Shown: positions 5,843 through 58,297, numbered from the stretch's first letter. The stretch: 64,000 bases of DNA from Alphaproteobacteria bacterium (GCA_016794125.1 JAEUKT010000002.1:1177769-1241768), one strand, 5' to 3'. Program-made: numbers and translations. Notes: generated by a model from the sequence alone, not told the origin.

Positions 5843-6181
5843 ATGGTCATCGGTATCGACGGTTTTCTGCATGAACGCATCGAAACGCTTTATGTATCCG
5901 AGGATCACAAGCTGTTCCTGAAGACGGGGCAGGCACAGACAGAGGGCGGACGACGCGCTTTTGTCAGCATCACGCGCTTTGACGAACTGGATGCGCTGGA
6001 ACGCCAATCCATGCTCCAACAGGCCAAGCCCCTGGACGACAATGCGCGGCTGAAGATATCGACGGTCGATGGCAAAACGGTCGTCTATGACGGTTTCACG
6101 GGGACGAACGCCGTTTTCACGCTCGCCCCGCGCAACGATGCCCCGCCCGCGAAAAAACCGAAGCTCAAATTCAGGCTTTAA
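5843..6181 (+). CDS. Hypothetical protein (112 aa) with basic Pro/Lys C-terminus
   Basis: RBS AAAGGA before ATG 5843; ends PRNDAPPAKKPKLKFRL. Confidence 0.7.
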   Translation: MVIGIDGFLHERIETLYVSEDHKLFLKTGQAQTEGGRRAFVSITRFDELDALERQSMLQQAKPLDDNARLKISTVDGKTVVYDGFTGTNAVFTLAPRNDAPPAKKPKLKFRL

Positions 6182-6232
6182 CACGCATTATACCGTCTTG
6201 CCGTGATGCCCCTGCGGGGATTACCATGACAC

Positions 6233-6493
6233 ATGACCGAAAACACCCCCGATTTCCGCAAGATGACGCCGGAGGATTTGCGCCGGAACATCACCGAGCT
6301 GAACCACCAGATCAAGCGCATGAAGCGCTTCAGCCCCAATGGCTTCGCCTATGAAATCGAACAGGCCGAAGAATTGCGCCGCAAATACAAGACCGTCTGG
6401 CGCGCCCGCCCCGGCCGCGCGTTCCACGATGTCGCCGCGCGCAAGAAAAAGCAGAAAGAAATGAAACGCTATACGCGCGGGCCGCGGTTTTAA
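6233..6493 (+). CDS. Hypothetical basic protein (86 aa)
   Basis: ORF with genome-typical codons, probable coiled N-terminal half; ends RAFHDVAARKKKQKEMKRYTRGPRF. Confidence 0.6.
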   Translation: MTENTPDFRKMTPEDLRRNITELNHQIKRMKRFSPNGFAYEIEQAEELRRKYKTVWRARPGRAFHDVAARKKKQKEMKRYTRGPRF

Positions 6494-7562: not shown

Positions 7563-8738
7563 TTACTTGCCGAAATTGCGGTTCAGCATCTTCTCGAACC
7601 CTTTGAAGGCGGGGGCGGCGGGTTTCACTTCCGCCGGCAATCCGGGCTCTGCCTTGGGCGCTGCGTTGTTCAAGGCTGCCTTCACATCCGGCACCGATTT
7701 CAGTGCGCCAGCCGATGCTTCAGCAACTGGGGCGGCGGGCGCGTTGTCATTGACCGGCACGGGATGCCCATAGACCTTGTGCAGCAGGCTTTTCGCAAAG
7801 CCGGTGACGGGGCCCTTGATTTTCTCGTTGAAGAAATCCTTGGCAAGCCCCGCAAGGTGCATCACCGGTTCTTTCAATACCTTCACCGCGGGGATCGCCA
7901 GCACCCCTGCCACGATACCGGTCGCCATCGTCGCTGCCGTTTCGATCATGCCGACAACCATCGGGCTGTTGCTGGCCAGATGCGCAAGGCCGGTCACGGC
8001 ATGTTCAAGTCCCGGGATGCCATGCATCAAAATCCCGCCGCCGACCGCGAACATCGCGGCGGTGCCAAGGAACGACAGGCCCTTCATCAGGGGCGGCACG
8101 GCCTTGACCAATCCGGTGCCAAAACTCCGCTTGAATTTTGAAAAGCCGTCTTCGCCTTCGGTTTTCGCGAGTTTCAGGCCCCAGTCGTCCAGTTTCACCA
8201 GGCCGCCGACAAGCCCGTAAATGCCGACTGTCATGCCGACGCCAACCGCGGCAAGCGCGCCCAGCTGCGTCAGGAAAGGGGCGGAGGCCATCGCGCCCAG
8301 CGCGACGACGACGATTTCGGCAGAGAGGATAAAATCGGTCTTGATCGCGGCGGCGACCTTTTCGGCCTCCAGCGTTTTCGCGTCTTTCTTCGGCGCGGCC
8401 TCATCTTCGTGCTTGTCCTTGTGCAGCATCTTCTCGACGCCTTCATAGGCAAGGAATGCGCCGCCCGCCATCATCAAGGGCGCAATTGCCCAAGGGGCGA
8501 CGACCGACAGCGCCATTGCGCCGGGGATGAGGTAGAAGAATTTGTTTTTCAGGGAGCCTTTGGCGACCGCCATCACCATCGGTATTTCGCGGCTGGGGTC
8601 GATGCCGCCCGCGCCGCCTGTCAGCACATGGGCATTCACTGCAAGGTCGTCACCGGAGATACCTACTGTTTTGCGCGCGGCGATTTTCGTCAATGCGGCG
8701 ATATCGTCGAGTAGTGCCAGAAGACCGGTGGCGGCCAT
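7563..8738 (-). CDS. DUF808 paralog 2 with C-terminal Pro/Ala/Lys extension
   Basis: LLALLDDIAA..KTVGISGDDLAVNA, TDFILSAEIV, GTAAMFAVGGGILMHG, plus tail ...VNDNAPAAP...PDVKAALNNAAPKAEPG... Confidence 0.9.
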   Translation of the reverse strand: MAATGLLALLDDIAALTKIAARKTVGISGDDLAVNAHVLTGGAGGIDPSREIPMVMAVAKGSLKNKFFYLIPGAMALSVVAPWAIAPLMMAGGAFLAYEGVEKMLHKDKHEDEAAPKKDAKTLEAEKVAAAIKTDFILSAEIVVVALGAMASAPFLTQLGALAAVGVGMTVGIYGLVGGLVKLDDWGLKLAKTEGEDGFSKFKRSFGTGLVKAVPPLMKGLSFLGTAAMFAVGGGILMHGIPGLEHAVTGLAHLASNSPMVVGMIETAATMATGIVAGVLAIPAVKVLKEPVMHLAGLAKDFFNEKIKGPVTGFAKSLLHKVYGHPVPVNDNAPAAPVAEASAGALKSVPDVKAALNNAAPKAEPGLPAEVKPAAPAFKGFEKMLNRNFGK

Positions 8739-8953: not shown

Positions 8954-9448
8954 ATGTTCAGCAAAATCCGAAAAGCAGGCGAAGACTTCACGCTCGACAG
9001 TCTTACGTCATATGTCGCCGATCACCTTGCCAAGCCGGGCGCGACTGCGGAGGACAACAAGCAGTTCGGCGGTGTCGCGGGTCTTGCGCTCGGCAACCTG
9101 CTGCGCGCGGTCGGCATCATCGGCACCGGCCTTGCGGTTGTGAGCGTGCTGGCATCGCCGGTCGGTGTTGCGACCCTTGGCACGCTGGCCTTCGGCGGCG
9201 CTCTTGCGGCGGCGGGCGTATTCGGGCAGGGCATGGTCGATGGCGGCGACAAAGCGACGAATTTTGTATCGGGCGCGCGCGAAGTGCGCGGCGAAATTTT
9301 CGGCGACGCGCTCGCCGACCTGAAAAGCTGGAGCAACAAAAAACTCGGCACCAAATTCGGCCTCGCCGCATCGCGCGAAGTAAAAGTCGAGCAGCTGCAG
9401 CCCGCTGTCCAGCCGGTTGTCGTGAAACAGCCCGAACAGAAGCTTTAA
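8954..9448 (+). CDS. Hypothetical Gly/Ala-rich membrane protein (164 aa)
   Basis: RBS GAGGG; hydrophobic GGVAGLALG...GTLAFGGALAAAG stretch; tail KFGLAASREVKVEQLQPAVQPVVVKQPEQKL. Confidence 0.8.
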   Translation: MFSKIRKAGEDFTLDSLTSYVADHLAKPGATAEDNKQFGGVAGLALGNLLRAVGIIGTGLAVVSVLASPVGVATLGTLAFGGALAAAGVFGQGMVDGGDKATNFVSGAREVRGEIFGDALADLKSWSNKKLGTKFGLAASREVKVEQLQPAVQPVVVKQPEQKL

Positions 9449-9460: not shown

Positions 9461-9973
9461 ATGCTGAAACTTCTCATGTCCGCTACGACGGATGAAGCGG
9501 GTAACATATCCGCGCCAAAAGTCCTCGAGGCCGATGCCAGCGCCTATGGCAACGAACTGGCCGCGCTGCAGGCAGCATCGACCTTTATGCAGAAGCAGGG
9601 GCTTGATGTGCTGCCTGTCACTTATGGTCACGGCATCGTGACGCTGTCAAAGGGCGACGATCTTGCCAAAAAGGCCGACGACCTGTTTTACAGCGCGAAC
9701 GCCTTCAGCCTGCGCGGCCTGCCGAGCCTGACCGCGCCCGAGCTGAAGCTCGGCGAGCCCGAGCGTGCGCGCGATATCGGACAGGCCGCGCATAGCGCGC
9801 TGCGTATCGCCCAGAAATTCAACCGCAAAGTGTCGTTCATGTTCAACAATGTCGCTATCCGCGATGTGGAGCCGAAGGCGGATATTACCAAAGCGGATAT
9901 CGACGCGATTTCGGCTAAATACAGCGTAGGTTACAAAGCGCTTTATGGTGCGGGCGGCGGCTTCAAGACCTGA
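9461..9973 (+). CDS. Hypothetical protein (170 aa)
   Basis: RBS AAGGA, 12 nt after the previous stop (probable operon), genome-typical codons. Confidence 0.75.
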   Translation: MLKLLMSATTDEAGNISAPKVLEADASAYGNELAALQAASTFMQKQGLDVLPVTYGHGIVTLSKGDDLAKKADDLFYSANAFSLRGLPSLTAPELKLGEPERARDIGQAAHSALRIAQKFNRKVSFMFNNVAIRDVEPKADITKADIDAISAKYSVGYKALYGAGGGFKT

Positions 9974-11040
9974 GGCTGAACAGGCGCAATCGCGGCGACT
10001 GCCTGCGGTTTTTCGGCGGCCGTGTTGATCGCCGCTTTCACATCCGGCATTTTCGCGAAGCTGTCATTGGCGGGCAGCAGGGCGGGCACGGGGCGCGCGA
10101 TCGTGGGCGTGGCAGCTTTCGCGGGTTTGAACTTCTGGACTGTTTTCTTCACATATGCGACTGCGGTGCGCAGGTAAGGCTTCACGGCTTTTCCAACCGG
10201 CTGCGTCGCCACGCCCGCGATCAGCCCCACGCCACCATGAAGGGCAAGCGACGCCGCGCCCTGCACCAGCGTATTCGATGACAGGTAACCCAGCGCGGCG
10301 TTCGCAATGTGATCCGCGCCCGGTATGCCATGCACCAGCATCGTGCCGCCGACCACGAACATCGCGGCGGAACCCAGCACGCCGATCGCCTTGATCAGCT
10401 TGGGCGCGATGCGCACCAGACCTTCGCCGGCCTTGCGCACGGTTTTCGAGAAAATGCTGTCGCCCTTTTTGGCGGCCATGCTGTCGCCCAGGTCGTCGAG
10501 CTTGATGACGCCCGCAACCGTGGCATACACCCCGACCGTCATGGCAAGCGCTGTCGCCGCCAGCGTGCCCAGCTGGATCAGGAACGGCGCGCCCGCGACG
10601 GTGAGCAGCGATACTGTCGTGATTTCGGCGGACAGCAGAAGGTCGGTGCGGATGGCATGCTTGATATGCTGTTTTTCCCATCCGGCATGATCCTGCGCAT
10701 GGGCCTCGTTCGCTTCGGGCTTCGGCGCCTTCATCTTGCGGTGGACAATTTTTTCCATCGCGTCATAACACAGCAGCGCGCCGCCCGCCGCGAGCATCGG
10801 GACAATCAATCCGGGCATGGTGAAGGTGAGCCCCAGCGCGGTCGGGATCAGGATGGCTTTATTCTTGAGCGCGCCCTTGAACACCTGCCAGACCATCGGC
10901 AGCTTGCGGTGGCTCTGCCCGCCGATCAGCAGGTTGCAGGCAATCGCCGTGTCGTCGCCGACCACGCCCAGCGTCTGCACCGCCGCGCGTTGCGACAGGG
11001 CAGCGATTTCTCCCAGCTGTGCGGCGAAGCCTGCCGACAT
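9943..11040 (-). CDS. DUF808 paralog 3, divergent, with C-terminal Pro/Ala/Lys extension
   Basis: QTLGVVGDDTAIA, TDLLLSAEITT, GVIKLDDLG, GSAAMFVVGGTMLVHG; tail PANDSFAKMPDVKAAINTAAEKPQ...KPPPAP. Start revised to 11040 by alignment with the other copies. Confidence 0.85.
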   Translation of the reverse strand: MSAGFAAQLGEIAALSQRAAVQTLGVVGDDTAIACNLLIGGQSHRKLPMVWQVFKGALKNKAILIPTALGLTFTMPGLIVPMLAAGGALLCYDAMEKIVHRKMKAPKPEANEAHAQDHAGWEKQHIKHAIRTDLLLSAEITTVSLLTVAGAPFLIQLGTLAATALAMTVGVYATVAGVIKLDDLGDSMAAKKGDSIFSKTVRKAGEGLVRIAPKLIKAIGVLGSAAMFVVGGTMLVHGIPGADHIANAALGYLSSNTLVQGAASLALHGGVGLIAGVATQPVGKAVKPYLRTAVAYVKKTVQKFKPAKAATPTIARPVPALLPANDSFAKMPDVKAAINTAAEKPQAVAAIAPVQPQVLKPPPAP

Positions 11041-11122
11041 GCGCGATGATCTTTCTGTTGTTGAACGACAGAAAAGATACCCCATGGGGTACAATAAGGA
11101 AAGTATTATGTAACTTATTGAT

Positions 11123-12289: not shown

Positions 12290-15172
12290 TTACGCAGCTT
12301 CCGAATACGCCTCGATCGGCGGGCAGGCGCAGACAAGGTTGCGGTCGCCGGCCGCATGGTCGATGCGGTTGACGGGCGGCCAGTATTTATCGCCGACCAG
12401 ATGCGCCGCCGGGAATGCGCCGTCATGGCGGGAATAGGGGCGTTCCCACTTCTCCGCCGTCAGGTCGCCGAGCGTATGCGGGGCGAGCTGCAGGGGGTTG
12501 TTGCCCTGCGGCCATGTGCCTTTTTCCACTTTTTCGATTTCCATGCGGATAACCGTCAAGGCCTCGATGAAACGGTCCAGCTCCGCCTTGCTCTCGCTCT
12601 CCGTCGGCTCGATCATCAGCGTGCCGGGGACGGGGAAAGACATGGTGGGCGCGTGGAAACCGAAATCCATCAGGCGTTTGGCGATATCGTCGACGCTGAT
12701 ATTCGCGGATGTTTTCAGCGGGCGCGTATCAAGGATGCATTCATGCGCCACAAAGCCGTTCTTGCCTTTGTACAGCGTCACGTAATGCTTCTCGAGCTTT
12801 TTCGCGATGTAGTTGGCGTTCAGGATCGCCACCTGCGTCGCGCGTTTCAGCCCCTCCGTGCCCATAAGCGTGATATAGACCCACGAGATGGGGAGGATTG
12901 ATGCCGAGCCATAGGGCGCGGCGGATACAGGGCCAATCGCATCTTCGCCGCCCACGCCGCCCACCAGCGGATGGCCGGGCAGGAAGGGGGCAAGGTGTTC
13001 CGCAACGCCGATCGGGCCCATGCCGGGGCCGCCGCCGCCATGCGGGATGCAGAATGTTTTATGCAGGTTCATGTGCATGACATCCGCGCCGAATTTGCCG
13101 GGGCAGGCCAATCCGACCAGCGCGTTGAAATTCGCGCCGTCCATGTAAACCTGTCCGCCGTTGTCGTGGATGATCTTGCAGATCTCGCGGATTTCTTCCT
13201 CGAACACGCCATGCGTCGACGGATAGGTGACCATCAGCGCGGCGAGCCTTTCTTTGTGCTGCTCCGCCTTCGCGCGCAGGTCGGCGAGATCGACGTTGCC
13301 GTTTTCATCGCAGGCTGTGATGACAACTTCCATGCCCGCCATCACGGCGGTCGCGGGGTTGGTGCCATGCGCCGAAGACGGGATCAGGCAGATATTGCGG
13401 TGCGACTGACCCTTCGATTCATGATAGGCGCGAATGACCAGCAGGCCGGAATATTCGCCCTGCGACCCTGCGTTGGGCTGCAGCGTCACCGCCGCAAAAC
13501 CCGTCAGACTGCACAGCTTCGCTTCCAGATCTTTCAGCATCAGTTTATATCCCTGCGCCTGATCAAGCGGCGCGAAGGGGTGCATGTTGCCGAATTCGGG
13601 CCAGGTGACGGGGATCATTTCCGCCGTCGCGTTCAGCTTCATCGTGCAGGAACCCAGCGGGATCATGGAACGGTTCAGCGCGATGTCTTTCTGTTCCAGA
13701 TGGCGCAGGTAGCGCAGCATTTCCGTTTCGGAGCGGTATTGATGGAAGGTCGGGTGCTGCAGGTATTCCGATGTGCGTTTCAGCGATTGCGGAATGGCAT
13801 CCGCCACGCCCGCATCCAGCGCCTCGACCGAGAAACCCAGCGCGCCCTTGCCGGAGAACACCTGCCACAGGCGGAAGACTTCATCGCGCGTGGAGCGTTC
13901 ATCCAGCGACACGCCGATACGGCCGTCGCCGAAATCGCGCAGGTTGATTTCCTTGGCCTGCGCGCGGTCGAGAATTTCCTGCGCGTGGCTGCCGGTATCG
14001 ACCGTCACGGTGTCAAAGAAATGCTGGTTGGTGGAGCTGAAACCCAGCTTGCGCAAACCTTCCGCGAAAATCGCGGCAAGGCGGTGCGTGCGGGTCGCAA
14101 TCGTCTTCAGGCCTTCGGGGCCGTGATAGACGGCGTAGAAAGCGGCGATATTCGCCAGCAACACCTGCGCGGTGCAGATGTTCGACGTCGCCTTTTCGCG
14201 GCGGATATGCTGCTCGCGCGTTTGCAGGGCAAGGCGATAGGCTGCCTTGCCTTTGCTGTCGACCGACACGCCGACGATGCGGCCGGGGATGGAGCGTTTA
14301 TAGGCATCCTGCGCGGCAAAGAACGCGGCATGCGGGCCGCCGTATCCCAGCGGCACGCCGAAGCGCTGCGCCGATCCGAACACGATATCCGCGCCCCATT
14401 CGCCGGGCGGCTTCAGAAGCGTCAGCGCCAGCAGGTCGGTCGCAACCGCAACCGCCATGTTTTTCGATTTTGCTTTTGCCGCCAGCGCGCCGTAATCGAC
14501 GACTGCGCCGGATGTGCCGGGGTATTGCAGCAGGATGGCAAAACCGTCTTTTTCAATCAGGTCGCCAGCTTTGCCCACGACGACTTCGATGCCCAGCGGT
14601 TTCGCGCGCGTTTCCACAACCGCAATCGTTTGCGGGTGGCAGTCATCCGCCACAAGGAATACGTTGCTGGTCGATGATCCGACGCGTTTCGCCAGCGTCA
14701 TCGCTTCGGCGGCCGATGTCGCTTCATCCAGCATTGATGCGTTGGCAAGCGGCATGCCTGTCAAATCCATCGTCACCTGCTGGAAATTGATCATCGCTTC
14801 CAGACGACCCTGGGAAATTTCGGGCTGGTAGGGCGTATAGGCGGTGTACCAGCCGGGATTTTGCAGCACGTTGCGCAAAATCACGTTCGGCGTGATGGTG
14901 TCGTAGTAACCCGCGCCGATCAGCGAGCGGTAAACCTTGTTCTGTTTCGCCATGCTTTCCAAAAGCGCCAGTGCGTCATGTTCCGTCATCGGCTCGCCGG
15001 TGACGGGCGCCGATTTTTCGCGGATGGCGGCGGGCACGGATTTGTTCGTCAAATCGTCAAGGCTGGATGCGCCCACGGTGCGCAACATCGCGGCAATATC
15101 GGATTCCGAAGGCCCGATATGGCGGCGGATAAAATCGGTGCGTTGTTCAAGGTCCTGGATCGTCTGCGGCAT
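12290..15172 (-). CDS. gcvP: Glycine dehydrogenase (decarboxylating), P protein
   Basis: [41 protein letters not shown]-lysine [18 protein letters not shown]. Confidence 0.99.
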
Positions 15173-15176
15173 GCGC

Positions 15177-15551: not shown

Positions 15552-15564
15552 TTTTGTTTTCCCT

Positions 15565-16695: not shown

Positions 16696-16734
16696 GGCAA
16701 ATTCCTTTACATAGTCAGTCGGAAACTTGCCCCG

Positions 16735-22559: not shown

Positions 22560-24344
22560 TTAGGGTTTCGGTGCTTTCGGCGCGGCGGGGGGTGTTTTCG
22601 CCTTTGCCGCTTCTTTCGCAGCTTCTTCCTGCTTCAGTGCCTTTTTGTCGGGCTTGCCGATCATGGTTTTCGGCAGGCTGTCGCGGGTTTCGAACTGCTT
22701 GGGCATTTCATACGGCGCGAGTTTATCGCGCAGGAACGCGGTCATGGTCTTGTCGTCGATTTTTTCCATGCCGGATTTATACACGATGAACGCTTTCACG
22801 GTTTCGCCGCGGTATTCATCCTTCACGCCCAGCACGATCACTTCGGACACGTTCGGGTGCTGCATGATCGCTTCTTCCACCTTGCGGGGGAATACTTTCA
22901 GGCCGGACGCGTTGATCATGTCCTTGATGCGGTCGACGATGAAGATATAGCCTTCTTCGTCCATGTAACCCACGTCGCCGGTGTGGAAATAGCCGTCTTT
23001 GTCCATCACATTGGCGGTTTCGTCGGGGCGGTTCCAGTAGCCCTGCATCACCTGCGGGCCGCGCAGGCAGATTTCGCCTTCCACGCGGATCGGGCAGGCC
23101 TGGTCGGGGAATTCCAGGTTGGCGATTTTCACTTCCGTTTTCGGGAGCGGCATGCCGATGGAATTCAGTTTCTTTTCGCCATGCACGGGGTTCGCAACCG
23201 CGATAGGCGAGGTTTCGGACAGGCCGTAACCTTCGGTCAGCGCCGTGCCGGTCAGTTTCGTCCAGCGCTGCTGCGTCGTCTCCGGCAGGCCCGCGCCGCC
23301 GGAGAGGCAGATTTTCAGCGACGACAGGTCGTATTTGCTGACATCGGGATGATCCATCAGCGCCTTATACAGCGTCGGGACACCCGCGAACATCGTGGGC
23401 TTTTCCGCGTCGATGGTTTTCAGCGTGGTTTTCGCGTCGAACTGCGGCAGCATCACGATTTCCGCGCCCAGCTTGATCGACAGGTTCATCTGCACGGTCA
23501 TCGAAAACACGTGAAAGAACGGCAGCACGACCAGCATTTTTTCCTGCTTGTTCGCCGCTTTCGTCGTGCCGCTGGTGAACCAGAAATCCGCCTGGTTCAG
23601 GTTGGCGGACAGGTTCGCATGCGTCAGCATCGCGGCCTTCGGGATACCCGTGGTGCCGCCGGTATATTGCAGCACGGCAAGGTCGGTCGGCTTCACGTCG
23701 ACCGGCGCGGGATTGCCCTTGTTCTTCATCAGTTTGGAGAACGGGATGTGTTTATCGTCGCTCTTCACTTTCACGGTGTCGGCCTTGCCGAACCAGCCCT
23801 TCACGGTATTGAGGACTTTGTACGCAAAACCCTTCACGCCCGGCAGCGCATCGGGCAGGTCTGCCACGATCACTTTTTTCAGGCAGGTGGAACCGTCCAG
23901 CATTTTGTCGATCTTGGGCTGGATTTTGGTGACGGCCAGCGACACCATCACATCGGTCTTGCTGTCGTTGATCTGGCCGCGCATTTCCTGTTCGGCATAG
24001 AGCGGGTTGAAGTTCACAACCGTCGCACCCGCCTTCAGCGCGCCGTAATAGGCGATCACGTAAAACGGCGTGTTCGGCAGGCACAGGCCGACATGCGACC
24101 CTTTGCCGAAACCGGCATCCTGCAAACCTTTGGCGAATTTATCGACTTCCTGACCCAGTTCCTTGTATGTCAGCGTCTTGCCCATGAAATTCAGCGCGGG
24201 CTTGTCGGCGTTTTTCTTGACCGAGTCCTCGAACATCTGCGTCATCGTGGAGACGGGGACTTCCATGTCCCAGTCGATATCCACCGGATATTTGTTGCTC
24301 CACGGATACTTGCCTTGAGGCTGGGGGGAGGCGGCTTCGGTCAT
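22560..24344 (-). CDS. Long-chain fatty acid--CoA ligase (FadD-like) with C-terminal PK tail
   Basis: LQYTGGTTGIPK, EGYGLSETSP, GYFHTGDVG, IVDRIKDMI, LPKTMIGK; tail AAKAKTPPAAPKAPKP. Confidence 0.95.
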   Translation of the reverse strand: MTEAASPQPQGKYPWSNKYPVDIDWDMEVPVSTMTQMFEDSVKKNADKPALNFMGKTLTYKELGQEVDKFAKGLQDAGFGKGSHVGLCLPNTPFYVIAYYGALKAGATVVNFNPLYAEQEMRGQINDSKTDVMVSLAVTKIQPKIDKMLDGSTCLKKVIVADLPDALPGVKGFAYKVLNTVKGWFGKADTVKVKSDDKHIPFSKLMKNKGNPAPVDVKPTDLAVLQYTGGTTGIPKAAMLTHANLSANLNQADFWFTSGTTKAANKQEKMLVVLPFFHVFSMTVQMNLSIKLGAEIVMLPQFDAKTTLKTIDAEKPTMFAGVPTLYKALMDHPDVSKYDLSSLKICLSGGAGLPETTQQRWTKLTGTALTEGYGLSETSPIAVANPVHGEKKLNSIGMPLPKTEVKIANLEFPDQACPIRVEGEICLRGPQVMQGYWNRPDETANVMDKDGYFHTGDVGYMDEEGYIFIVDRIKDMINASGLKVFPRKVEEAIMQHPNVSEVIVLGVKDEYRGETVKAFIVYKSGMEKIDDKTMTAFLRDKLAPYEMPKQFETRDSLPKTMIGKPDKKALKQEEAAKEAAKAKTPPAAPKAPKP

Positions 24345-25003: not shown

Positions 25004-25513
25004 TTACGCTTTCGGGGGCTTCGGTGCTTCCGGTGCCTTGGGCGGGGTTTTCGGTTTGGTCGCATCCGTGTCGGGCACGACGGGCGCGATGAGGTCGAGG
25101 AGGCTGGAGCCGGTCGAGGGTTTGGTGTCCGCGTCTTTTTTCAGCTCTTCCAGTTTCGCGCCGGCGGCAAGGCCGCCTTCGATCGCTTTGTCTTTTGCCA
25201 CGTTGAACGCGCCGGTGATGGCGTCGCCCGCGATGCCCGCCACGCCGTCGATTTTCTCGGCCAGCGGTTTCGCTTTTTCGGCGAGGTCGCCGATTTTCAC
25301 GGCGGCGGCGTCGGTCACGGCTTCGATCCTGTCATTCACTTCGTTCGCGGTCGCGAGGCCTTTTTGCGCGAGCTTGATGGCGGCGGCGGTGCGCTTCATC
25401 TTTTTCTCGTTCGCTTCTTTCTTGGCCGCGCGGATTTTCGCGGGATCGGTTTCTTCCTTCAGGTGGTCTTCGGCTTTTTGTTTCAGTTTATCGAGAAAGT
25501 TTTTGATACCCAT
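25004..25513 (-). CDS. Hypothetical Ala/Lys-rich helical protein (169 aa) with PK tail
   Basis: RBS AAAGGGA before MGIKNFLDKLKQ; downstream terminator; ends KPKTPPKAPEAPKPPKA. Confidence 0.8.
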   Translation of the reverse strand: MGIKNFLDKLKQKAEDHLKEETDPAKIRAAKKEANEKKMKRTAAAIKLAQKGLATANEVNDRIEAVTDAAAVKIGDLAEKAKPLAEKIDGVAGIAGDAITGAFNVAKDKAIEGGLAAGAKLEELKKDADTKPSTGSSLLDLIAPVVPDTDATKPKTPPKAPEAPKPPKA

Positions 25514-27750: not shown

Positions 27751-28902
27751 ATGAAATTCGAAGACACCAGCCTGTTGCGTCACCCGACCGTCGAGAAGGC
27801 GTATAACGTCATGCGCACATTTTTTACCGATGGCGACGACTGGGCGCGGGAAGCGGTGCGGGTCGGCGAGATCATCACGGCCAATGCCAAGAACCCCGAC
27901 CCCGATGCGATCGCGGCGAGTGTGCTGATGAACGGCATGGTTATTCCGTATGAGGCGGAGCAGTTCGAACAGTCTGTGTCCCCCCGCGCGGCGGATTACC
28001 TGAAAAAATTCTACGAACTCGACCTCGAAAACCCGAAATTCTCGACCGCGGGCGAACAGCAGGTGTTGCTGGCGACCTCCGTCATTGGCCTTCAGGCCGT
28101 GCAGGCGAAAATCGCCGCCGGCGAAGTGGCGCATATCATCGAATACCGCAATGTCAGCCGCGTGATCGACATGAACGAACGCAGCCTCGCCGAAATCGCG
28201 CGCGACGGCACGACGGAAACCGAAATGCTGCAGGCCGCGCAAACGGCCTTGGTCGGCGCGCAAACCGCGCTGGCGGGCGTTGTCGCGCAGCGCGTAAACG
28301 AATTGAAATTCGAAAACACCGGTCTGCCGGACCACCCGACCATCCGCAGCGTGTACGAAGACATGAAGGCATGGGCATTCGATGGCGACCCGCTGGGCGG
28401 CTATGCCCAGACAAATGCCGCGATTGCCAAAGTCGTGGCCGACAGCGTTTCCAGCGATCCCGAAGTGATCGCGGCGGCGCTCCTGAACCAGTACAGCACC
28501 CTGCGCCCCGGCCATAAAAAGCCCGAAGATTTCGGTGCGCGCATTGCCGAATTGTGGGAACAATCTTCCCCCTGGGCGCGCATGAGCAGCGAAGACGACG
28601 CAAAACAGCCGAAAACGCCGGAGGCGCTTGCCATCCGTCAGGCGGCGCGCCTGTACTTCCTTGAAGGCCAGATCGAATGGATGAATTCGGCCAAGGGCAT
28701 GGAACAAGAATCGCGCGTGCAAACGCTGGAACGCCTCGAAGACAGCCGCGATATCGTGGCGCAGGCGGCGGCATCGCAGGATAATGCGGTGTTCAAGGCG
28801 CGGCTTGAAAAGGCGGTCGCGGGCGCGGACGCGCTGATCCACAAGCCCGAAAACGTAAAGATCCGCAAGCCGGGCAGCCCGAAGGTCGATCCGGGTTGGT
28901 AA
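27751..28902 (+). CDS. Two-repeat protein resembling degenerate RelA/SpoT-type HD hydrolase domains
   Basis: Internal duplication MKFEDTSLLRHPTV / LKFENTGLPDHPTI; DPDAIAASVLMNG and DPEVIAAALLNQY..EDFGARIAEL align with HD_4 AAxLHD..FG..VA, with the HD residues lost. Confidence 0.75.
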   Translation: MKFEDTSLLRHPTVEKAYNVMRTFFTDGDDWAREAVRVGEIITANAKNPDPDAIAASVLMNGMVIPYEAEQFEQSVSPRAADYLKKFYELDLENPKFSTAGEQQVLLATSVIGLQAVQAKIAAGEVAHIIEYRNVSRVIDMNERSLAEIARDGTTETEMLQAAQTALVGAQTALAGVVAQRVNELKFENTGLPDHPTIRSVYEDMKAWAFDGDPLGGYAQTNAAIAKVVADSVSSDPEVIAAALLNQYSTLRPGHKKPEDFGARIAELWEQSSPWARMSSEDDAKQPKTPEALAIRQAARLYFLEGQIEWMNSAKGMEQESRVQTLERLEDSRDIVAQAAASQDNAVFKARLEKAVAGADALIHKPENVKIRKPGSPKVDPGW

Positions 28903-39456: not shown

Positions 39457-40074
39457 TTAGTGTTTCGGCGCGGGATAGGCGACGGTATCTTTCGGCGCGG
39501 TCGATAAGCCGCGATCGGGCGGGTTGGTAACGGGCGTGAATTCCAGCGTCTTGCCCACAAGGCCGCCCAGCGTGACGACTTTTTTCCAGCCGCTGATGGC
39601 GTAACCGCGGATTTTCAAATTTTTCTGGTCGCCGTGGGGCAATTGTATGTCGAAACCGAAGGCTTCCTTGCGCTGCTCGATCCAGATTTTCCCTTGCCAC
39701 CTGCCGCCACCCATATTTTTCATGTCGCGCAGCTGCGGTTTGTAGTCGAGCGCCTTTTCGAAATCGGCCTGCGTGAGTTTATTCTTGTCCTTGCTGACAT
39801 TGCCTGCGACAAGGGTGCGGACTTTATCGTTTTCGGGGTTCAGCGCGTGGATGCGGAATTGTATGCCGGTTGAATCCGTCCACACATCAATCACGCCGTC
39901 ATATTCGGGGTGCTTCCAATAACTATGCGCGGTTTGCGGGATGGGCTGCACAGCCGCTGCCGGCACAACGGCATTTTGTGCACGCATCGGGCGAACCGAT
40001 GCTGCCAAAAATCCCAGCGCCAGCGCCGAGGTGGTGGCGAGGGTGGTGAAAATCTTCGCACGTTTGCTTGTCAT
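39457..40074 (-). CDS. Secreted protein, distantly DUF2147-like
   Basis: N-terminal hydrophobic leader; WQGKIW, LKIRGYA, LVGKTLEFTPV resemble the DUF2147 C-terminus; tail PAPKH. Confidence 0.5.
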   Translation of the reverse strand: MTSKRAKIFTTLATTSALALGFLAASVRPMRAQNAVVPAAAVQPIPQTAHSYWKHPEYDGVIDVWTDSTGIQFRIHALNPENDKVRTLVAGNVSKDKNKLTQADFEKALDYKPQLRDMKNMGGGRWQGKIWIEQRKEAFGFDIQLPHGDQKNLKIRGYAISGWKKVVTLGGLVGKTLEFTPVTNPPDRGLSTAPKDTVAYPAPKH

Positions 40075-45501: not shown

Positions 45502-47097
45502 TCACGATGCCGGTTTTGGCTGCGGCTGGCGCAGCGGCAGCACGGCTGTCGGCTTCGGAATGCTCTTTAGCACGGGCTCTACCGCCGCGATATCCACGCC
45601 GTGGCGCGCATTCGCCGCCACGTAATCGATCCGGCGCACATCGTTAAGATAAGTCTGCTGCAGCTTGGTCATCAGGACGGGCAGGGCGGCGTTGTCAGGC
45701 TGGGTCTTGATGCCGTCCATCAGGGCGGTCTGCAGCGCGCCATAGGCCCCGATCATGGTCTGGGGGGTGATCTTGCCATACAGGGCGAAGGCGCGTTCCT
45801 GCAGCATCGCGCTGGCGTTCCAGGCGCGCACCTTGGCCATGCCGGCCTTTTCCTTGTCCGTCAGCGGCGTGCCGCCCTTGGGGGCGTGTTTGTCGGCCTG
45901 TTCGGCGGCCACATAGATACGGCGGAATTCCTGTGCGCGGATAAAATCGGGGTCCTGCCCTGCCAGAATACCTAATGCCCGCTTCTGCGCGGGGGTCTTG
46001 GCATCCTCCAGCATAACTGTATAGCCCACGATGGGCCCGGTCAGCTCCTTGGCGTCCATGACCGAGAAGTAAAGCGCCTGCGCCTGCGTGTCGTTGAGCG
46101 CGCGGAAGGCGGGCAGGCCCATTTTGACGATCCGGCTTTTCAGTTCCGCCAGCACCGGGGGCGAAAAATGCAGGACATCGCCCAGTTCGCGTTTCCGCCA
46201 GTCGGATACCGCGTCGATGATCTCGAGTCCGGCCTTGCCGCTGCGGATCAGGTCGCCCGCCGCGCCGACATCCGCCAGCGACTCCTTATTATATCGTAGC
46301 GCGATAAATTCCCGCACGGTTGCGTTGTTGCGGGCGGCGTTGGGCTTCTTCATTTCCTTTTCCACCGCCTCCTCGTCAAACCCGTGGATGGGGTAGCGGC
46401 TGTCCAGGCAATGCCAGGATTCATGGGTGTTCACAAAGGCGACTTTCTGCTGGAACGTCAAACCGGGCAGGTCAAAAGGCAGCGCATGCGCCGATGACGG
46501 CACGATCACGCAGGCTTCGCCGGAAGCCCCCGTCATGTTGACGAAGGCGGAAGGGCTCTGGGTTTTGACCAGGCCGAAGCTGAACTGGAAAAAGTTGGCC
46601 ATGCTGCCTGCCACGATGCGGGCGCGGGCGGGCTCCATCTGCACATTATGCTCGCCCAGCATCATCTGCACGATGGCGGTGGAGGGCAGGCCCAGCGCCG
46701 TGCCGGCATCGAAACGGGCGGGGTCCAGCAGTACGACGCGGTCATGCAGCCCCTGCATATGCTGCAGGCTAAGCGTCAGGCGGTCGCCCAGCAGGTTCAG
46801 GTCGCGCGAATAGGCATCGCCGGTGTGGATTTTCGATGCCATGAAGTCGTTCCGCGCCGCGTTGATCAGCGCCATGCGGACCTCCATGCGGTATTCCATC
46901 TCCCGCAGGTCGGGCGGTACCTGTTCGGTAACCGCTGCGCCGGTGCCGTCGGGGGCTGCGGGCGGGCCGTTCTGCGCCGATGCGGGCATGGCGCTGCCCA
47001 GCAGCACGGTCGCAAGCGCGGTGGAGGCCGCGAATTTGCGCCATACCGCGCTCAGCTGGCCTTTTTTATGCGGGTCTTTGGTGTCGTTTTTCGCCAT
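45502..47097 (-). CDS. Secreted hypothetical protein with HExxH metallopeptidase-like motif (531 aa)
   Basis: Signal-like STALATVLLGSAMPASA; FVNTHESWHCLD plus downstream KESLADVGA; tail PLRQPQPKPAS. Confidence 0.7.
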   Translation of the reverse strand: MAKNDTKDPHKKGQLSAVWRKFAASTALATVLLGSAMPASAQNGPPAAPDGTGAAVTEQVPPDLREMEYRMEVRMALINAARNDFMASKIHTGDAYSRDLNLLGDRLTLSLQHMQGLHDRVVLLDPARFDAGTALGLPSTAIVQMMLGEHNVQMEPARARIVAGSMANFFQFSFGLVKTQSPSAFVNMTGASGEACVIVPSSAHALPFDLPGLTFQQKVAFVNTHESWHCLDSRYPIHGFDEEAVEKEMKKPNAARNNATVREFIALRYNKESLADVGAAGDLIRSGKAGLEIIDAVSDWRKRELGDVLHFSPPVLAELKSRIVKMGLPAFRALNDTQAQALYFSVMDAKELTGPIVGYTVMLEDAKTPAQKRALGILAGQDPDFIRAQEFRRIYVAAEQADKHAPKGGTPLTDKEKAGMAKVRAWNASAMLQERAFALYGKITPQTMIGAYGALQTALMDGIKTQPDNAALPVLMTKLQQTYLNDVRRIDYVAANARHGVDIAAVEPVLKSIPKPTAVLPLRQPQPKPAS

Positions 47098-49285: not shown

Positions 49286-49837
49286 TTACGGCTTCATCCC
49301 GAACTTCTGCGCGCCTTTCGCATAGACCTTATCAAACTCGCCCTCCAGCCCCGCATTCACGCCGCGCAACCCGTCGACCACGTTCTTCGCCCAGCTGAAA
49401 TATTCCTGCTTGCGCGCGAGGCTCCAGTCGGGCGGCGGGGAGTCGAGGATGGCGCGGAGGTTGGAGATTTTGTCGGCGGTCTTTACCAGCTTCGCCGCGT
49501 CCGATTTATGCGGCGCGTGTTCGACCTGCAAACGCTTGCGCTCCGCCTTCGGCAATGATTTGTCATCCGTACATTCCTGCACGATATCAGCGACGTTCTG
49601 GCCGAATTCCTTCACCAGTTCCGCGTATTTCGTATCGGTGTCCTCGATCGTGTCATGCAGCACGGCGGCGCAGAGCGCATCGGCGTCCTTGCCGTCGGTG
49701 AATTGCGCGACAAGGTCGGCAACCTCGATCAGGTGGTTGACATAGGGCTCGGCGCGTTCGCCCTTGCGGCGCTGGTCGGTGTGTTTTTTGGCGGCAAACA
49801 ACAATGCGCGCGTCAGTTTCTGCGAAACTTCGGTCAT
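49286..49837 (-). CDS. Small alarmone hydrolase-like HD protein (Mesh1/HD_4)
   Basis: AAKKHTDQRRK..EPYVNHL, AAVLHDTIEDT, LVKTADKISNL; catalytic motifs intact. Confidence 0.93.
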   Translation of the reverse strand: MTEVSQKLTRALLFAAKKHTDQRRKGERAEPYVNHLIEVADLVAQFTDGKDADALCAAVLHDTIEDTDTKYAELVKEFGQNVADIVQECTDDKSLPKAERKRLQVEHAPHKSDAAKLVKTADKISNLRAILDSPPPDWSLARKQEYFSWAKNVVDGLRGVNAGLEGEFDKVYAKGAQKFGMKP

Positions 49838-54281: not shown

Positions 54282-54980
54282 CTAACTGATGAGTAACAAA
54301 CGCGGCGGGCGGCCGTCAACCGTGTCGGGCGCGCGGTGGATGCAGGGCGCAACGGGGCTGCCCGGATATTCGACCGCGATGCGCCACATATTGCCGATGC
54401 CGAACGAATAGCGCACGGCGTTTGGGAGCGGAGCATAATGCAGGTCGTAACAATTCTCGCGCAGGAATTCCTCGAAGCTTCCGCCGCCTTTATTCGCGAA
54501 TAAATCCTGCAATTTTTGCCGCGTTACGGGATTGTCGATGCGGCGTTGCGCGGAGGCATTGTCCAGCCCTTCGCTCGAAGATTCGTTATAGCTGCACAGA
54601 TAGGTGTCGGCCTGAACGGGCGCGCGGTCGGCGTGGAAAGAATATACATCCGTCGGCACGGCGTTGCCGTCGTCGCGCGGATAGCGCGGCACGCATTCAA
54701 GGCTGGGCAGCAGGCCGCGTTCCTGCAACAGCTGACGGTCGGCCAATAATATATCGGCAGCGATGCAGCCCTGTGCGCTCAGGCGCGGGCGTAGGCTTTC
54801 AATGGCTTCTTCATCCAGCGAAACGATGTCTTCTTCGTTCTGCAGCAGCGCCGCGATTTCATCGAAATTGCCCGGCAATTGCCGCGCCCAGCAGATCGCA
54901 TTCACCTCCGGCCCGAAGGATGCGTTCACCAGATCGTCGAAACTGCCGACGATGCGTATGCGGGATGTGGCCGGCGTCAT
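54282..54980 (-). CDS. DUF1826-like protein
   Basis: NAICWAR, DVYSFHADRAP..TYLCSY, CIHRAP pattern; family assignment from recall. Confidence 0.7.
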   Translation of the reverse strand: MTPATSRIRIVGSFDDLVNASFGPEVNAICWARQLPGNFDEIAALLQNEEDIVSLDEEAIESLRPRLSAQGCIAADILLADRQLLQERGLLPSLECVPRYPRDDGNAVPTDVYSFHADRAPVQADTYLCSYNESSSEGLDNASAQRRIDNPVTRQKLQDLFANKGGGSFEEFLRENCYDLHYAPLPNAVRYSFGIGNMWRIAVEYPGSPVAPCIHRAPDTVDGRPPRLLLIS

Positions 54981-57900
54981 TACAGCGTGGCGGGTTTCGG
55001 CGGCTTCGGCTGCTTGACGGGTGCGGGCGGCTGCATGGCGGCGACCTTGGCGGGATCAACGCCATAGGCCTTGTCCAGTACGGGGCGCACGCCCGGGATC
55101 GCGGCCTTGAACACCGATGCGGCAAGTGCGCTCGTGAATTTATGCTTGCCGGCATCGGGGCCGTCGACATAGGCGACGACGGTGCCATAGAAACGGTCGT
55201 CGATTGCGAACACAAACGTCGCCGTGCGGTTTTTCGCCTCCGACGACGTGACACCGCCGCCGCGGCTGAAGGTCTGCTGGCGGTTGTCGCCGGTGCCGGT
55301 CTTGCCGCCGACGGGCAGGATGCGCCCGTCGCTGAGGACGACCGACTTGTTGGCGCGGCGGGCCGTGCCTTCCTCCACCACGCCGTTCATTTCGCGGCGA
55401 ACGAGCCTGGTGACCTCTTCGGGCAGCACGCGCTTGCCGGCCGCATGCTTGGGCAGGAAGTCGAGCGCATAGGGCGTATCCGCAGCAAAGCTGATTTCCT
55501 CGAACTTCTCCGCCGGTTTCAGGATGCCGCCGTTCTGGATGATGCCGGACAGCGTGGCCAGCGCGGCGGGCGTATCGCCCGATGAACCCAGCGCGGAGGC
55601 GTAGGACGGCACCATTTTATCGAAGGAATAACCAAGGTTTTTCCATGTCGCATGGATATGCACAAAGGCTTCTTTTTCCAGCATGATGCGGATGCGCGTA
55701 TTTTGCGCTTCGATCTTGTCGGATTTCAGCAGCCATTTATAAGTCAGGATACGCGCATCGGCGGATGCAGCGACCGCTTCGGACCATGTGCTGTCGGGCG
55801 ATTTTGCGCGGTGTTCGCCCAGCCACAATGCCAGCGGATGCACGCCGGTAAGATAGCCGCGGTCGTTCAGGTCGAACTTGCCGGGCGCGTAATCGTCGTA
55901 CAGTTTCTGGAAGTTGGTGTTGTCGCCGATATTCGTGCCTTCCTTGCGGATAAAGGCTTCCATCTTTTCAACCGGTGCGTCGGGGAATACCGAGCGGTAA
56001 ACGACCGCCAGATGCGCGCCGGTGCGCTTGGTTTTCGCGGCCAGCAGCGTTGCGGTTTCGTCGGGGGATTTGCCCTTTTGTTCGCCCCAGGCGCGCCACA
56101 GGAAGGTTGTGCCTTCGGCATGGACGAACTGTTCAAGGTACTTGCGGCGCTGCGGATTGTCGGGGTTGTCGAAAATATCCGCGCTGACATCCATTTTTTG
56201 TGATTGCGTGTAATACACGATGTCTTTCATCATGCGGATGAAGGACAGGTTGACCGAATGGTGGAACGCGTCCTTGACGTTATACGACTTGTAGTTTTCC
56301 GACGATTCAAAGTTGTCAAACGTATGCACGCCCCCGCCGGTGAAGAAACGCTCGCCGTTGCCGCCGGAATACATGCGGTCCAGCGACGCCTCCAGCATCG
56401 CGTTCAGCGATTTGTCGGTCGCGGTGTTCGCCATGTAATCAATCGCCCAGCGCGACAGGTTGTCGTCGCGCAGCACGTGGATTTTCTGCAGTTCCGCCGC
56501 ATCCATGCCGCTGTATTTCTTATGCAGCTCCGACATCGCTTCAAGGTATGAAACAAGCGTGCGCAGCTTCGCGGTCGAGCCCAGTTCCAGTTTCGTGCCT
56601 TCGTTCACGTTCAGCGCGCCGTCGAAATTGTCGGCCTGCACGCGCAGCACGTTCGTGCCGTCGGGCAGTTTTTCGTAGAGTGTGAAGGAATAGCGCAGCT
56701 GGTCTGCCAGCGCCGGGTTCAGCAGCTGGAATCCGGTCAGGCCGTTCTTCGCCGCGATTTCGGGGTCGGACAGGCTGTGCAGCAGTTTCGTGACCGCTTC
56801 GTCCGCGCGCGCGTCAATCGTCGTGCGTGCGGTGATATCAAGGCGGTTGAGTGCATAGATGTCTTTGACGCCAAGATCACGCAGCAGGCTCACCTGCAAG
56901 GCCTCGATCGATTTCTGGCGCGCTTCTTCTGTCACGCGCGGAGCGCGGCTTGGTTTTGCGAATTCGGGATGCGCCGCCATCACCGCGTCCTTCATGCGCG
57001 GGCTGATGATGCCCTGTTCCGCCAGCAGCGGCAGGTAGGCATCGACGCGCGCATCCAGCTCCGCGCGTTCCTTCAGCAGATAGGAGGAGGGCTTCGTGAC
57101 CGACATGACAAGCCGCAGCGCCTGACGGTAAGCATCCGCCGCGCGTTTCAGCTCCGCGTCGTCCATTTGTGAATCGGGTTTTTTCAGCAGCCGGTTGGCT
57201 TCGGCGAAATCCGCGCCGAACCACGCGACCATGCCGTCACCAAAACCAGTGATTTCGCCCGCGCCGGGGAAGGAGGAGAGGGGGATCGAATTGAGGTAAT
57301 CCAGCACGATGCGCTGGCCGGCTTCGCGCGTGTCGCGCCCGCCGGAATAATTGCGCGTCGATGCGGTTAGCATCTGCTCCAGCTTTTCCTTGCCCGTGCG
57401 CGTGATACCGTCGGGCGAATGGCGGAATTTTTCGGTCTGCGTCGCCAGCGTCGATCCGCCGGGTGCGTTGCCGCCGATATGTATTTTCTTCAGCAGCTGG
57501 TCGCGCGCGGCCTTGGCGAAGCGGCCCCAGTTGATGGCGTTGTTATGCGTGTTTGCCTGTTTTTCGATCAGCTGGCGGTCTTCGACGAACAGCAGGCTCT
57601 GCGCCAATACGGGCGGGATGCTGTCGTAATCGGCATAGACCTGGCGCGGGAAGCGCGCGTCGAACATCACCTGTGCATTGCCATCGACCAGCCTCAAACC
57701 GGCTTGCGCCTTTTCATTATAGATGGGGAACAGCTGCAGCCCCGCAATATTGCGGTCGGCCCATTCGCCTTCTTTCTGCACCTCGAACCCGCGCGCGGTC
57801 AGGCGTTCGCGGAATTGCAGCGTTTGCGTGTAACCCATGCGCTCGTCATACGGCCCTGCGGCGGGCGGCGCGATGGTGGGGCTTGTCTGCTGCATCTGGG

Positions 57901-58297
57901 TGAAGGTTTTTCCCTCTGCCACGCTCGTGAAGAAATGCGATTGCAGATAGGATGTTTTGACTTCGGCATATATGCCCGCGCCCAGCACCACAGTTGTCGT
58001 GCCCGCAATTGCGGCGCGCTGCGCCCAGCGTGGCCATGCGCGATATGCATTTGCGGCTTCCTTCGCCTTCTTGCCCACAGCCGCTGCGCCATTGGACATC
58101 AGCGACGCGCCCGTCGCCAATGCGCCGGATCCCGCCTGCACGATGGACGCGCCGGTGGACAGCAGCTTTGATTTGAATGACGGCGGTGCCGGCGGCAGTG
58201 GCGCTGCAGGCACAGGATCAACAAGGCTTGAATCGGGGGAAGGGGTGTCGCCTGCAGGGGTAAGGTCAGGGTCGCGTTTATCGTCTTCATTCGACAT
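54980..58297 (-). CDS. Large divergent class A penicillin-binding protein (transglycosylase plus transpeptidase)
   Basis: TG motifs LLFVEDR, GGSTLATQ, DYLNSIP; TP motifs STAK, SVN, GKTGTG; long N-terminal extension; tail PVKQPKPPKPATL. Confidence 0.85.
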   Translation of the reverse strand: MSNEDDKRDPDLTPAGDTPSPDSSLVDPVPAAPLPPAPPSFKSKLLSTGASIVQAGSGALATGASLMSNGAAAVGKKAKEAANAYRAWPRWAQRAAIAGTTTVVLGAGIYAEVKTSYLQSHFFTSVAEGKTFTQMQQTSPTIAPPAAGPYDERMGYTQTLQFRERLTARGFEVQKEGEWADRNIAGLQLFPIYNEKAQAGLRLVDGNAQVMFDARFPRQVYADYDSIPPVLAQSLLFVEDRQLIEKQANTHNNAINWGRFAKAARDQLLKKIHIGGNAPGGSTLATQTEKFRHSPDGITRTGKEKLEQMLTASTRNYSGGRDTREAGQRIVLDYLNSIPLSSFPGAGEITGFGDGMVAWFGADFAEANRLLKKPDSQMDDAELKRAADAYRQALRLVMSVTKPSSYLLKERAELDARVDAYLPLLAEQGIISPRMKDAVMAAHPEFAKPSRAPRVTEEARQKSIEALQVSLLRDLGVKDIYALNRLDITARTTIDARADEAVTKLLHSLSDPEIAAKNGLTGFQLLNPALADQLRYSFTLYEKLPDGTNVLRVQADNFDGALNVNEGTKLELGSTAKLRTLVSYLEAMSELHKKYSGMDAAELQKIHVLRDDNLSRWAIDYMANTATDKSLNAMLEASLDRMYSGGNGERFFTGGGVHTFDNFESSENYKSYNVKDAFHHSVNLSFIRMMKDIVYYTQSQKMDVSADIFDNPDNPQRRKYLEQFVHAEGTTFLWRAWGEQKGKSPDETATLLAAKTKRTGAHLAVVYRSVFPDAPVEKMEAFIRKEGTNIGDNTNFQKLYDDYAPGKFDLNDRGYLTGVHPLALWLGEHRAKSPDSTWSEAVAASADARILTYKWLLKSDKIEAQNTRIRIMLEKEAFVHIHATWKNLGYSFDKMVPSYASALGSSGDTPAALATLSGIIQNGGILKPAEKFEEISFAADTPYALDFLPKHAAGKRVLPEEVTRLVRREMNGVVEEGTARRANKSVVLSDGRILPVGGKTGTGDNRQQTFSRGGGVTSSEAKNRTATFVFAIDDRFYGTVVAYVDGPDAGKHKFTSALAASVFKAAIPGVRPVLDKAYGVDPAKVAAMQPPAPVKQPKPPKPATL

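Follow-up and report, generated by a model that had tools for sequence, protein, structure and literature searches.

Why do many unrelated proteins encoded in a single stretch of an alphaproteobacterial genome end in similar tails rich in proline, lysine, and alanine? The stretch, referred to here as the window, comprises 64,000 nucleotides of an assembly labelled Alphaproteobacteria bacterium (GCA_016794125.1, JAEUKT010000002.1:1177769-1241768). An earlier note on this DNA listed nine such C-termini and proposed that they form a lineage-specific targeting or secretion signal. We found that about one in ten proteins of this Micavibrio-like bacterium carries a Pro/Lys/Ala-rich C-terminal tail and that such tails are rare in other alphaproteobacteria. 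The tails are kept among orthologues of the clade, in three families with a short tip in register with the C-terminus, and they occur on carriers from both sides of the inner membrane.

Enrichment of proline-rich C-termini

The window has a GC content of ~0.59 and contains ~54 genes, which were called by frame-specific GC content and then checked against Pfam. Orthologues of its divergent class-A-like penicillin-binding protein (PBP), with identities of 97-68%, were found in metagenome-assembled genomes labelled Alphaproteobacteria bacterium, Bdellovibrionales bacterium, and uncultured Micavibrio sp., and the homologues of its FadD-like acyl-CoA ligase bear the name Micavibrio sp., which identifies the source of the window as a Micavibrio-like alphaproteobacterium. 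The genus Micavibrio is still filed under Bdellovibrionales in the NCBI taxonomy.

Proteins with at least four Pro within the last 15 residues were counted as tailed, and the same open reading frame (ORF) caller was applied to every sequence set, including the GC-matched controls (Sinorhizobium pSymA and pSymB, an Azospirillum plasmid and chromosome, and a Skermanella chromosome). Tails were found in 5/46 proteins of the window and 37/227 proteins of 18 loci from relatives, compared with 3/167 proteins of the alphaproteobacterial controls (window versus controls, odds ratio 6.7, p = 0.013). When orthologues were clustered, the difference held at the family level (12/106 versus 3/167, p = 0.0015). 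At least five Pro were present at the ends of 4/50 window proteins versus ~0.19 expected from internal 15-residue segments, 0.38% of which reach this value. N-termini with at least four Pro occurred once, and five of the 20 Pro-rich segments in the 54 window proteins exactly abut the C-terminus. The N-terminal Pro-rich segments, in the PBP and the DUF2339 protein, are Pro/Ala/Ser-rich and contain little Lys. At each of the last eight positions, Pro accounted for 13-17% of residues in the relatives versus 4.7% in bulk protein, and the controls stayed near the bulk value. The 42 tails analyzed were composed of 35% Pro, 16% Ala, and 16% Lys, with a net charge of ~+2.6 and a K:R ratio of 99:27. 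The idea of lineage-specific, non-random tails was thus borne out: they are ~7-fold commoner than in GC-matched alphaproteobacteria, kept in orthologues, and absent from outgroup FadD and DUF808 orthologues. In the literature we found no paper pairing Micavibrio with "proline-rich" and no prior description of such tails for Micavibrio.

Two other sources of the tails were considered and rejected. No shared DNA element or miniature inverted-repeat transposable element was found at the 3' ends of the genes, and the tail codons differ. A frame or annotation artefact was discarded because third-position GC in the tails is coding-like and orthologues keep the tails.

All nine C-termini listed in the earlier note translate exactly as quoted, but a strong excess of Pro is confined to five of them. 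Six of the last 15 residues are Pro in DUF808-3, the 25004 protein, and the PBP, five in the FadD-like ligase, and four in the 45502 protein. The other four are weak or of another kind, with three Pro each in the 5843, 27751, and 39457 proteins and none in DUF808-2. One carrier absent from that list is encoded at 8954-9448 (+). The core proteins of the window had been taken as an internal control, which holds only in part. Many of the "control" proteins end in basic residues without Pro, including Tkt (KKKV), DUF808-1 (KLKAKWAVRKAAKA), the arginase-family protein (KKVKTRTKKLA), and the deoxyhypusine-synthase-like protein (KKRSRRNWNKLFK), and core proteins of relatives do carry tails. Such basic ends reflect the universal C-terminal bias toward Lys and Arg (PMC7246954). 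The distinctive element of the observation is proline, not basic charge.

Conservation of the tails and their C-terminal tips

The tails are conserved among orthologues down to ~50% identity and are missing from outgroup orthologues. In the FadD-like acyl-CoA ligase (22560-24344, -), the Pfam domain AMP-binding_C ends at residue 564 of 594, and the tail (PDKKALKQEEAAKEAAKAKTPPAAPKAPKP; 22563..22652, -) runs from a short helix-like stretch into a Pro/Lys tip. A tail with a helix-like stretch, a variable linker, and a Pro/Lys tip was found in 94 clade homologues (49-99% identity), with lengths of 8-74 residues past the anchor motif GKxD[KR]K. In contrast, none of the 18 outgroup orthologues had a tail (the named ones were from Skermanella, Azospirillum, and a Rhodospirillales metagenome-assembled genome), and their net charge was -0.6.

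The helical orphan encoded at 25004-25567 (-) ends in TKPSTGSSLLDLIAPVVPDTDATKPKTPPKAPEAPKPPKA (25007..25126, -), in which an internal conserved motif precedes a KPPKA-COOH tip. The internal motif, KPSTGSxLLDxIAPxVPExDATKPK, was present in 9/9 orthologues; these end in APKPPxx or APPAP, with PP plus two residues at the end in all nine. A single-sequence AlphaFold2 model of the protein showed helices at residues 4-129 and coil at residues 130-169, with a predicted local distance difference test score of 52-65 in the tail. A metagenome scan with the alignment of this family recovered only five loci, and one with DUF808-2 found nothing.

The Pfam domain of DUF808-3 (gene 9943-11094, -) ends at residue 295 of 383, and the 88 residues past it (9946..10209, -) end in ...VQPQVLKPPPAP. 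Extensions of 60-90 residues, often with a KPPxP-type tip, were carried by 40 long paralogues and orthologues (352-393 aa), whereas ~80 canonical DUF808 proteins from many phyla (~305-315 aa) end just past the last membrane helix. The long tails (P0121-P0160) share the internal motifs P[AV]ND[NST][QF] and VPDVKAALNxAA; examples are PANDSFAK in DUF808-3 and VNDNAP in DUF808-2, and some FadD tails contain AANENK or AGNDNK. The extension of DUF808-2 (7566..7892, -) spans 109 residues. Its Pro/Ala-rich linker lies upstream of the end; the final residues, AFKGFEKMLNRNFGK, form another motif, which is also conserved and reads AFKGFEAMLKKNFGK in the close relative L020.

The PBP (54980-58297, -) ends in PAKVAAMQPPAPVKQPKPPKPATL (54983..55054, -). 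Between 97% and 68% identity, orthologues retain the composition of this tail; synonymous changes have altered codons for Lys and Ala but not the residues, and one orthologue (L003) has a 6-nt deletion. The protein itself, at 1105 aa, is highly divergent, with a weak transglycosylase match (54 bits) and weak matches in the transpeptidase region (TIGR02074, 50 bits versus a cut-off of 509). Its N-terminal region, Pro-rich over ~90 residues, probably lies in the cytoplasm, and the stop codon of the gene overlaps the start of the next one (TAATG). The exported orphan encoded at 45502-47097 (-), which has no Pfam or NCBIfam match, ends in IPKPTAVLPLRQPQPKPAS (45505..45561, -), and in L002 the orthologous protein carries a longer tail, also Pro-rich, that closes with RQTPPKPPS.

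The remaining endings are of other types. The protein encoded at 27751-28902 (+) ends in KIRKPGSPKVDPGW (28858..28899, +), and its orthologues, with individual ends KIRKPGSPRIDPGW, KIRKPGSPKRDLGW, and AIRAPGTPKREPGW, share the ending KIRKPGSP[KR]xD[PL]GW; this specific conserved motif ruled it out as a low-complexity tail. The 5843 protein, a small protein encoded at 5789-6181 (+), has a basic end with few Pro (APPAKKPKLKFRL; 6140..6178, +), which reads VKKPNLKFRL in L020. The membrane protein encoded at 8954-9448 ends in ...QPAVQPVVVKQPEQKL (9398..9445, +), also kept in L020. These last two endings and that of DUF808-2 are thus retained in a close relative, but they are not of the Pro-tip type. 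No orthologue was retrieved for the exported small protein encoded at 39457-40110 (-), which ends in TNPPDRGLSTAPKDTVAYPAPKH (39460..39528, -).

Core proteins, among them ATP synthase delta and TrpS, also gain and lose tails. ATP synthase delta ends in ...KKPPPPPAA or ...NNNPPPPAA in two relatives and has no such tail in the window copy, and its eight close matches all lacked one. Among the 150 representatives listed from all bacteria, a Pro-rich end (at least three Pro in the last 15 residues) was found only in P0252, one of the four best-scoring matches; the best match, P0249, ends in ...GPKAP with only two Pro. TrpS carries a C-terminal extension in one relative, L010. The TrpS ORF of the window (25659-27275, +; 538 aa) is over-extended at its 5' end: the Pfam match covers only residues 206-488, orthologues have 335-355 aa, and the upstream part overlaps an opposite-strand SRAP-family gene (25599-26399, -).

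In the FadD, 25004, and long DUF808 families, the variable linker leads to a tip anchored at the C-terminal end, which reads roughly as [KR]-P-P-x-[P/A/M]-COOH. The consensus of the FadD tip is A-P-K-[PA]-P-[KG]-[PAM]-COOH, with Pro at position -3 in 64/94 clade homologues and in 62/91 distinct tails spanning 21 lengths. The information content at -3 was 2.37 bits (shuffle maximum, 1.6), and the values at -3, -4, and -2 exceeded those of all 200 composition-preserving shuffles. The motif [KR]PP was followed by exactly two residues in 25 of its 41 occurrences in FadD and 9 of its 21 in DUF808, and the last two residues of the tip are variable. Within these three families, conservation is therefore anchored at the free C-terminus at any linker length, as defines a C-terminal short linear motif. 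A profile of the FadD tip also gave higher scores to the C-ends of unrelated families than to permuted versions of the same tails; examples are the 25004 family (p = 0.005), a GNAT protein from L005 (p = 0.001), and an exported L007 protein with lytic-transglycosylase-like motifs (p < 0.001). When proteins were counted, PP at offset 2 occurred 18 times versus 3-5 times at neighbouring offsets. The register of the tip is well supported within families, and across families the evidence is suggestive.

A second type of basic ending, [RK]x[FY]G[MKR]-COOH, was observed in the FadD homologues P0046, P0077, P0080, P0084, and P0091 (RHRKFGM, NANRFGM, RRYGM), in DUF808-2 (NRNFGK; 7566-7610, -), and in an HD-domain protein (KFGMKP; 49286-49837, -). 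Both tip types occur within FadD and within DUF808. For the ends of DUF808-1 and DUF808-2, a MinD-like amphipathic reading was considered, and a hydrophobic-moment test gave no decisive signal.

Topology of the carriers and competing explanations

The PBP has an N-terminal membrane anchor, and the 45502 and 39457 proteins have signal-peptide-like N-termini (in the latter with a hydrophobic segment at residues 20-38); these features place their tails in the periplasm. The tails of FadD, the 25004 protein, and the DUF808 proteins are cytoplasmic, in the case of DUF808 because they are strongly basic and follow the last membrane helix (positive-inside rule). One export signal could therefore not serve all carriers. 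Together with the presence of tails on housekeeping proteins, this distribution argues for a local action on each carrier instead of routing to one export machine.

The explanation we favour, with a probability of roughly 0.5, is that selection maintains the tails as disordered polybasic C-terminal extensions specific to this clade, which would work locally by tethering or docking their carriers. Intrinsically disordered low-complexity Pro/Ala/Lys segments, likely polyproline-II-like, would have been added to many unrelated proteins of the lineage, with small in-frame indels probably lengthening and shortening them. Selection would keep a linker of variable length and sequence and a tip in C-terminal register in at least three families that face the cytoplasm (FadD, 25004, and long DUF808). 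The tail would likely serve each carrier as a flexible, positively charged tether or docking peptide that touches anionic surfaces of the membrane or envelope, or else a partner protein. Consistent with disorder, the composition is biased toward disorder-promoting residues and the tail of the 25004 protein is modelled as coil. Length and sequence change fast while composition is kept, as seen in the range of FadD tail lengths and the indels of the PBP and 45502 tails. The caveat of the earlier note that localization or anchoring might fit better than export is closer to the data, and this role remains putative.

Several points weigh against this explanation. The sample consists of 64 kb and ~20 mostly syntenic loci, rather than a proteome. 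The Pro tip is missing from ~30% of the clade FadD tails. After orthologues were collapsed, PP at offset 2 was found in six families, equal to offset 5 (six), and was not significantly preferred. Conservation anchored at the C-end could partly be an alignment-free artefact, since indels scramble the columns that lie away from it. Of the 12 tail-bearing families, only ~4 have a membrane helix or signal peptide, with no clear envelope enrichment. Finally, a partner, lipid binding, and a specific localization are all putative.

A bolder form of the explanation is that [KR]-P-P-x-[P/A/M]-COOH on a Pro/Ala/Lys linker would represent a clade-specific "C-end code" read by a putative cytoplasmic factor, which might be a protease adaptor, a scaffold, or a membrane surface. 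We regard this form as doubtful. A variable disordered linker with a short conserved C-terminal peptide is also the design of the MCP NWETF pentapeptide, the SSB tip, and the FtsZ C-terminal peptide, which thus share the architecture of the tails. However, each of these peptides belongs to one family and has a known reader, whereas the present tip recurs on unrelated families and its reader is putative.

Alternatively, the tails could be a by-product of relaxed selection against C-terminal Pro (for example, through efficient termination or RF3), with slippage-prone CCG/AAG-rich 3' ends extending the reading frames. Apart from the universal advantage of C-terminal Lys and Arg, most tails would then serve no particular function. 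In every phylum, Weber et al. (2020) found an excess of Lys and Arg within the last ~20 positions; the C-terminal Pro bias was strongly clade-dependent and showed a correlation with RF3 (PMC7246954). In bacterial low-complexity regions, no residues are commoner than Pro, Ala, and Gly, and CCG is the dominant Pro codon (PMC6821194). The coming and going of tails on ATP synthase delta and TrpS among close relatives, the 8% of tailless proteins that end in Pro, and the presence of tails in every compartment, as expected of a process at the level of synthesis, are also in line with a by-product. However, the FadD, 25004, and long DUF808 tails persist to ~50% identity with a position-specific tip, the residues of the PBP tail are kept despite synonymous change, and stop-codon usage is alike in tailed and tailless genes (TAA in 57% and 62%, respectively), with no compensating choice. 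A purely neutral origin is hard to square with the deep conservation of the tip, and although such an origin is plausible for the sporadic tails, we consider it somewhat unlikely as a general account.

A role in proteolysis is attractive but appears improbable. The disordered tail would serve as an initiation region and the tip as a C-terminal degron or anti-degron, recognized by an AAA+ protease or an adaptor (ClpXP or FtsH), or as a block to carboxypeptidases, which would set the turnover of carriers during the predator life cycle. Degrons of the ssrA or ClpX kind combine an LAA-like or MuA-like (RRKKAI) end with an upstream adaptor-binding AANDxx element. The P[AV]ND[NST][QF]-like motif of long DUF808 tails (PANDSF, PANDNQ) and some FadD tails may resemble the start of alphaproteobacterial ssrA tags, to which the adaptor binds, and tips such as KPPKAAI and KKPAI may resemble the basic ClpX motif of the MuA type. 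In addition, unrelated proteins facing the cytoplasm have the tip at a fixed distance from the free carboxylate, and C-terminal residues are known to modulate bacterial degradation and expression (PMC7246954). On the other hand, the last two residues are variable, the periplasmic carriers would require another reader, and no transfer-messenger RNA gene of the clade was found in the window or the loci of relatives with which the tag could be compared.

An effect on the nascent chain is considerably less probable still. A Pro-Pro pair two codons ahead of the stop would make elongation or termination slower, depending on EF-P, and would thereby hold the finished chain on the ribosome or tune expression. 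Such an effect would be independent of compartment, the ribosome being the only place common to all these C-termini, and it would make use of the Pro-Pro near the stop codon. The tail of the L007 protein encoded at 2226-4043 (...LPQPRPPGL) resembles the C-terminal half of type II proline-rich antimicrobial peptides, which attach to the exit tunnel and keep release factors trapped. However, stalling on ~10% of proteins would be costly, stop codons show no compensating preference, and the DNA that follows the tails varies in kind, being a terminator, an overlapping start codon, or a spacer. Such an effect would also leave the linker and the internal motifs unexplained.

The proposal of the earlier note that the tails are signals for a VirB/D4-type type IV secretion system (T4SS) or another dedicated translocation route, delivering repurposed enzymes to prey, is not supported. 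Substrate signals of VirB/D4 systems are positively charged with an Arg-rich consensus of the R-x7-R-x-R-x-R type. The tails resemble them in being unstructured and net-positive at the C-terminus, and the predatory lifestyle of the clade (PMC3189940) would suit delivery. They differ in being Lys-rich, and the spacing of the Arg consensus was not seen in the nine tails. A signal of this kind has to be cytoplasmic before export, whereas the PBP, 45502, and 39457 tails are already periplasmic. Other carriers are housekeeping or inner-membrane proteins (FadD and DUF808, and ATP synthase delta in relatives). Pfam scans for components of T4SS, type III secretion systems, and Tad found none among the window proteins, and the genome paper of M. 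aeruginosavorus ARL-13 reported no evidence of type III or IV systems (PMC3189940). Other sorting routes do not fit either: no tail contains a hydrophobic segment, as would be needed for sortase, exosortase, or rhombosortase signals (LPXTG, PEP-CTERM, GlyGly-CTERM), which combine a motif, a hydrophobic helix, and a basic cluster. Type I (RTX) substrates have nonapeptide repeats ahead of a C-terminal signal that is not cleaved, and RTX/cadherin-like repeats are confined to two giant proteins at the window edges. The tails are thus very unlikely to be a type IV secretion signal.

Genomic setting, known C-termini, and implications

The gene content of the window includes Gap, Tkt, three DUF808 paralogues, LpxR, GcvTHP, two AI-2E transporters, ATP synthase delta, a DUF2339 protein, TrpS, IleS, Dps, a polyamine cluster, and TypA/BipA, with RTX/cadherin-like giants at both ends. 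The giant at the left edge (1-922, -) is truncated and has cadherin-like/Big_9 domains, and the one at the right edge (61419-64000, +), also truncated, has at least nine RTX calcium-binding repeats. Both are of the kind typical of type I secretion substrates and have no relation to the Pro/Lys tails. Tandem glycine riboswitch aptamers (Rfam RF00504, 77 and 34 bits) were found at 16727-16909 (-), upstream of the gcvT-gcvH-gcvP operon (12290-16695, -). Between Gap and Tkt lies a gene for an AAA_21/AAA_15 (AbiEii-like/OLD-type) ATPase (2838-3626, -), which is kept in L020.

A small, very basic protein encoded at 6233-6493 (+; ...ARPGRAFHDVAARKKKQKEMKRYTRGPRF) belongs to a family without a Pfam match, of which several paralogues per genome adjoin DUF808 genes; other members are found in L021 (12284-12574 and 15888-16328) and L022 (6266-7921). 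The exported 39457 protein is adjoined by a gene (40131-41438, -) for a 435-aa protein of the Hsp70/MreB superfamily, in which the Hsp70 match covers the N-terminal ATPase half only. The polyamine cluster (41495-45345, -) comprises an arginase/agmatinase-family gene, a NUDIX gene, a deoxyhypusine-synthase-like gene (PF01916, 1e-91), and an Orn/Arg/DAP decarboxylase gene. A bacterial homologue of deoxyhypusine synthase near many poly-Pro C-termini is curious given the biology of EF-P/eIF5A, and any link is putative.

The tails extend two known phenomena, namely the C-terminal Lys/Arg bias with clade-variable Pro and the Pro/Ala-rich low-complexity regions. The universal bias accounts for the basic character of both the tails and the "control" proteins, but it is a preference for one or two residues, whereas the present tails are Pro-rich extensions of 10-90 residues on ~10% of proteins, some with a conserved tip (PMC7246954). 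The prokaryotic low-complexity regions described by Ntountoumi et al. (2019) are similar in residue palette, CCG codon, and conservation among orthologues; unlike them, the present tails are strictly C-terminal, basic, and clade-restricted at a ~7-fold excess (PMC6821194). The actinobacterial "PAKKA"-type tails of Ku, HupB, and TopA are likewise basic low-complexity Pro/Ala/Lys C-termini absent from orthologues of other lineages (PMC3553676; PMC6821194). They form repeat arrays on DNA-binding proteins, whereas the carriers here are enzymes, membrane proteins, and periplasmic proteins without a PAKKA repeat. CrtA of Cereibacter offers another parallel within the alphaproteobacteria: the C-terminal extension of this enzyme is disordered and Pro-rich, is not needed for catalysis, and appears to bring the enzyme together with other membrane proteins (PMC13488962). 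It differs in being a single protein with a Gly-rich end segment and no proteome-wide trend.

For annotation, the extensions explain differences in length between Micavibrio-like proteins and their orthologues and are not to be mistaken for frameshifts or missed stop codons. By themselves, basic unstructured C-termini in a predator are no evidence of effector delivery. If a C-end code exists, the factor reading it would coordinate the stability or placement of about one-tenth of the proteome in Micavibrio-like epibiotic predators. If the trend is proteome-wide, it would provide a clear example of a lineage-specific rule for protein ends, by which unrelated enzymes, membrane proteins, and periplasmic proteins acquire the same kind of Pro/Lys tail and, in some families, the same tip; it would also allow tests of which factors read the C-termini of bacterial proteins other than those with the ssrA tag.

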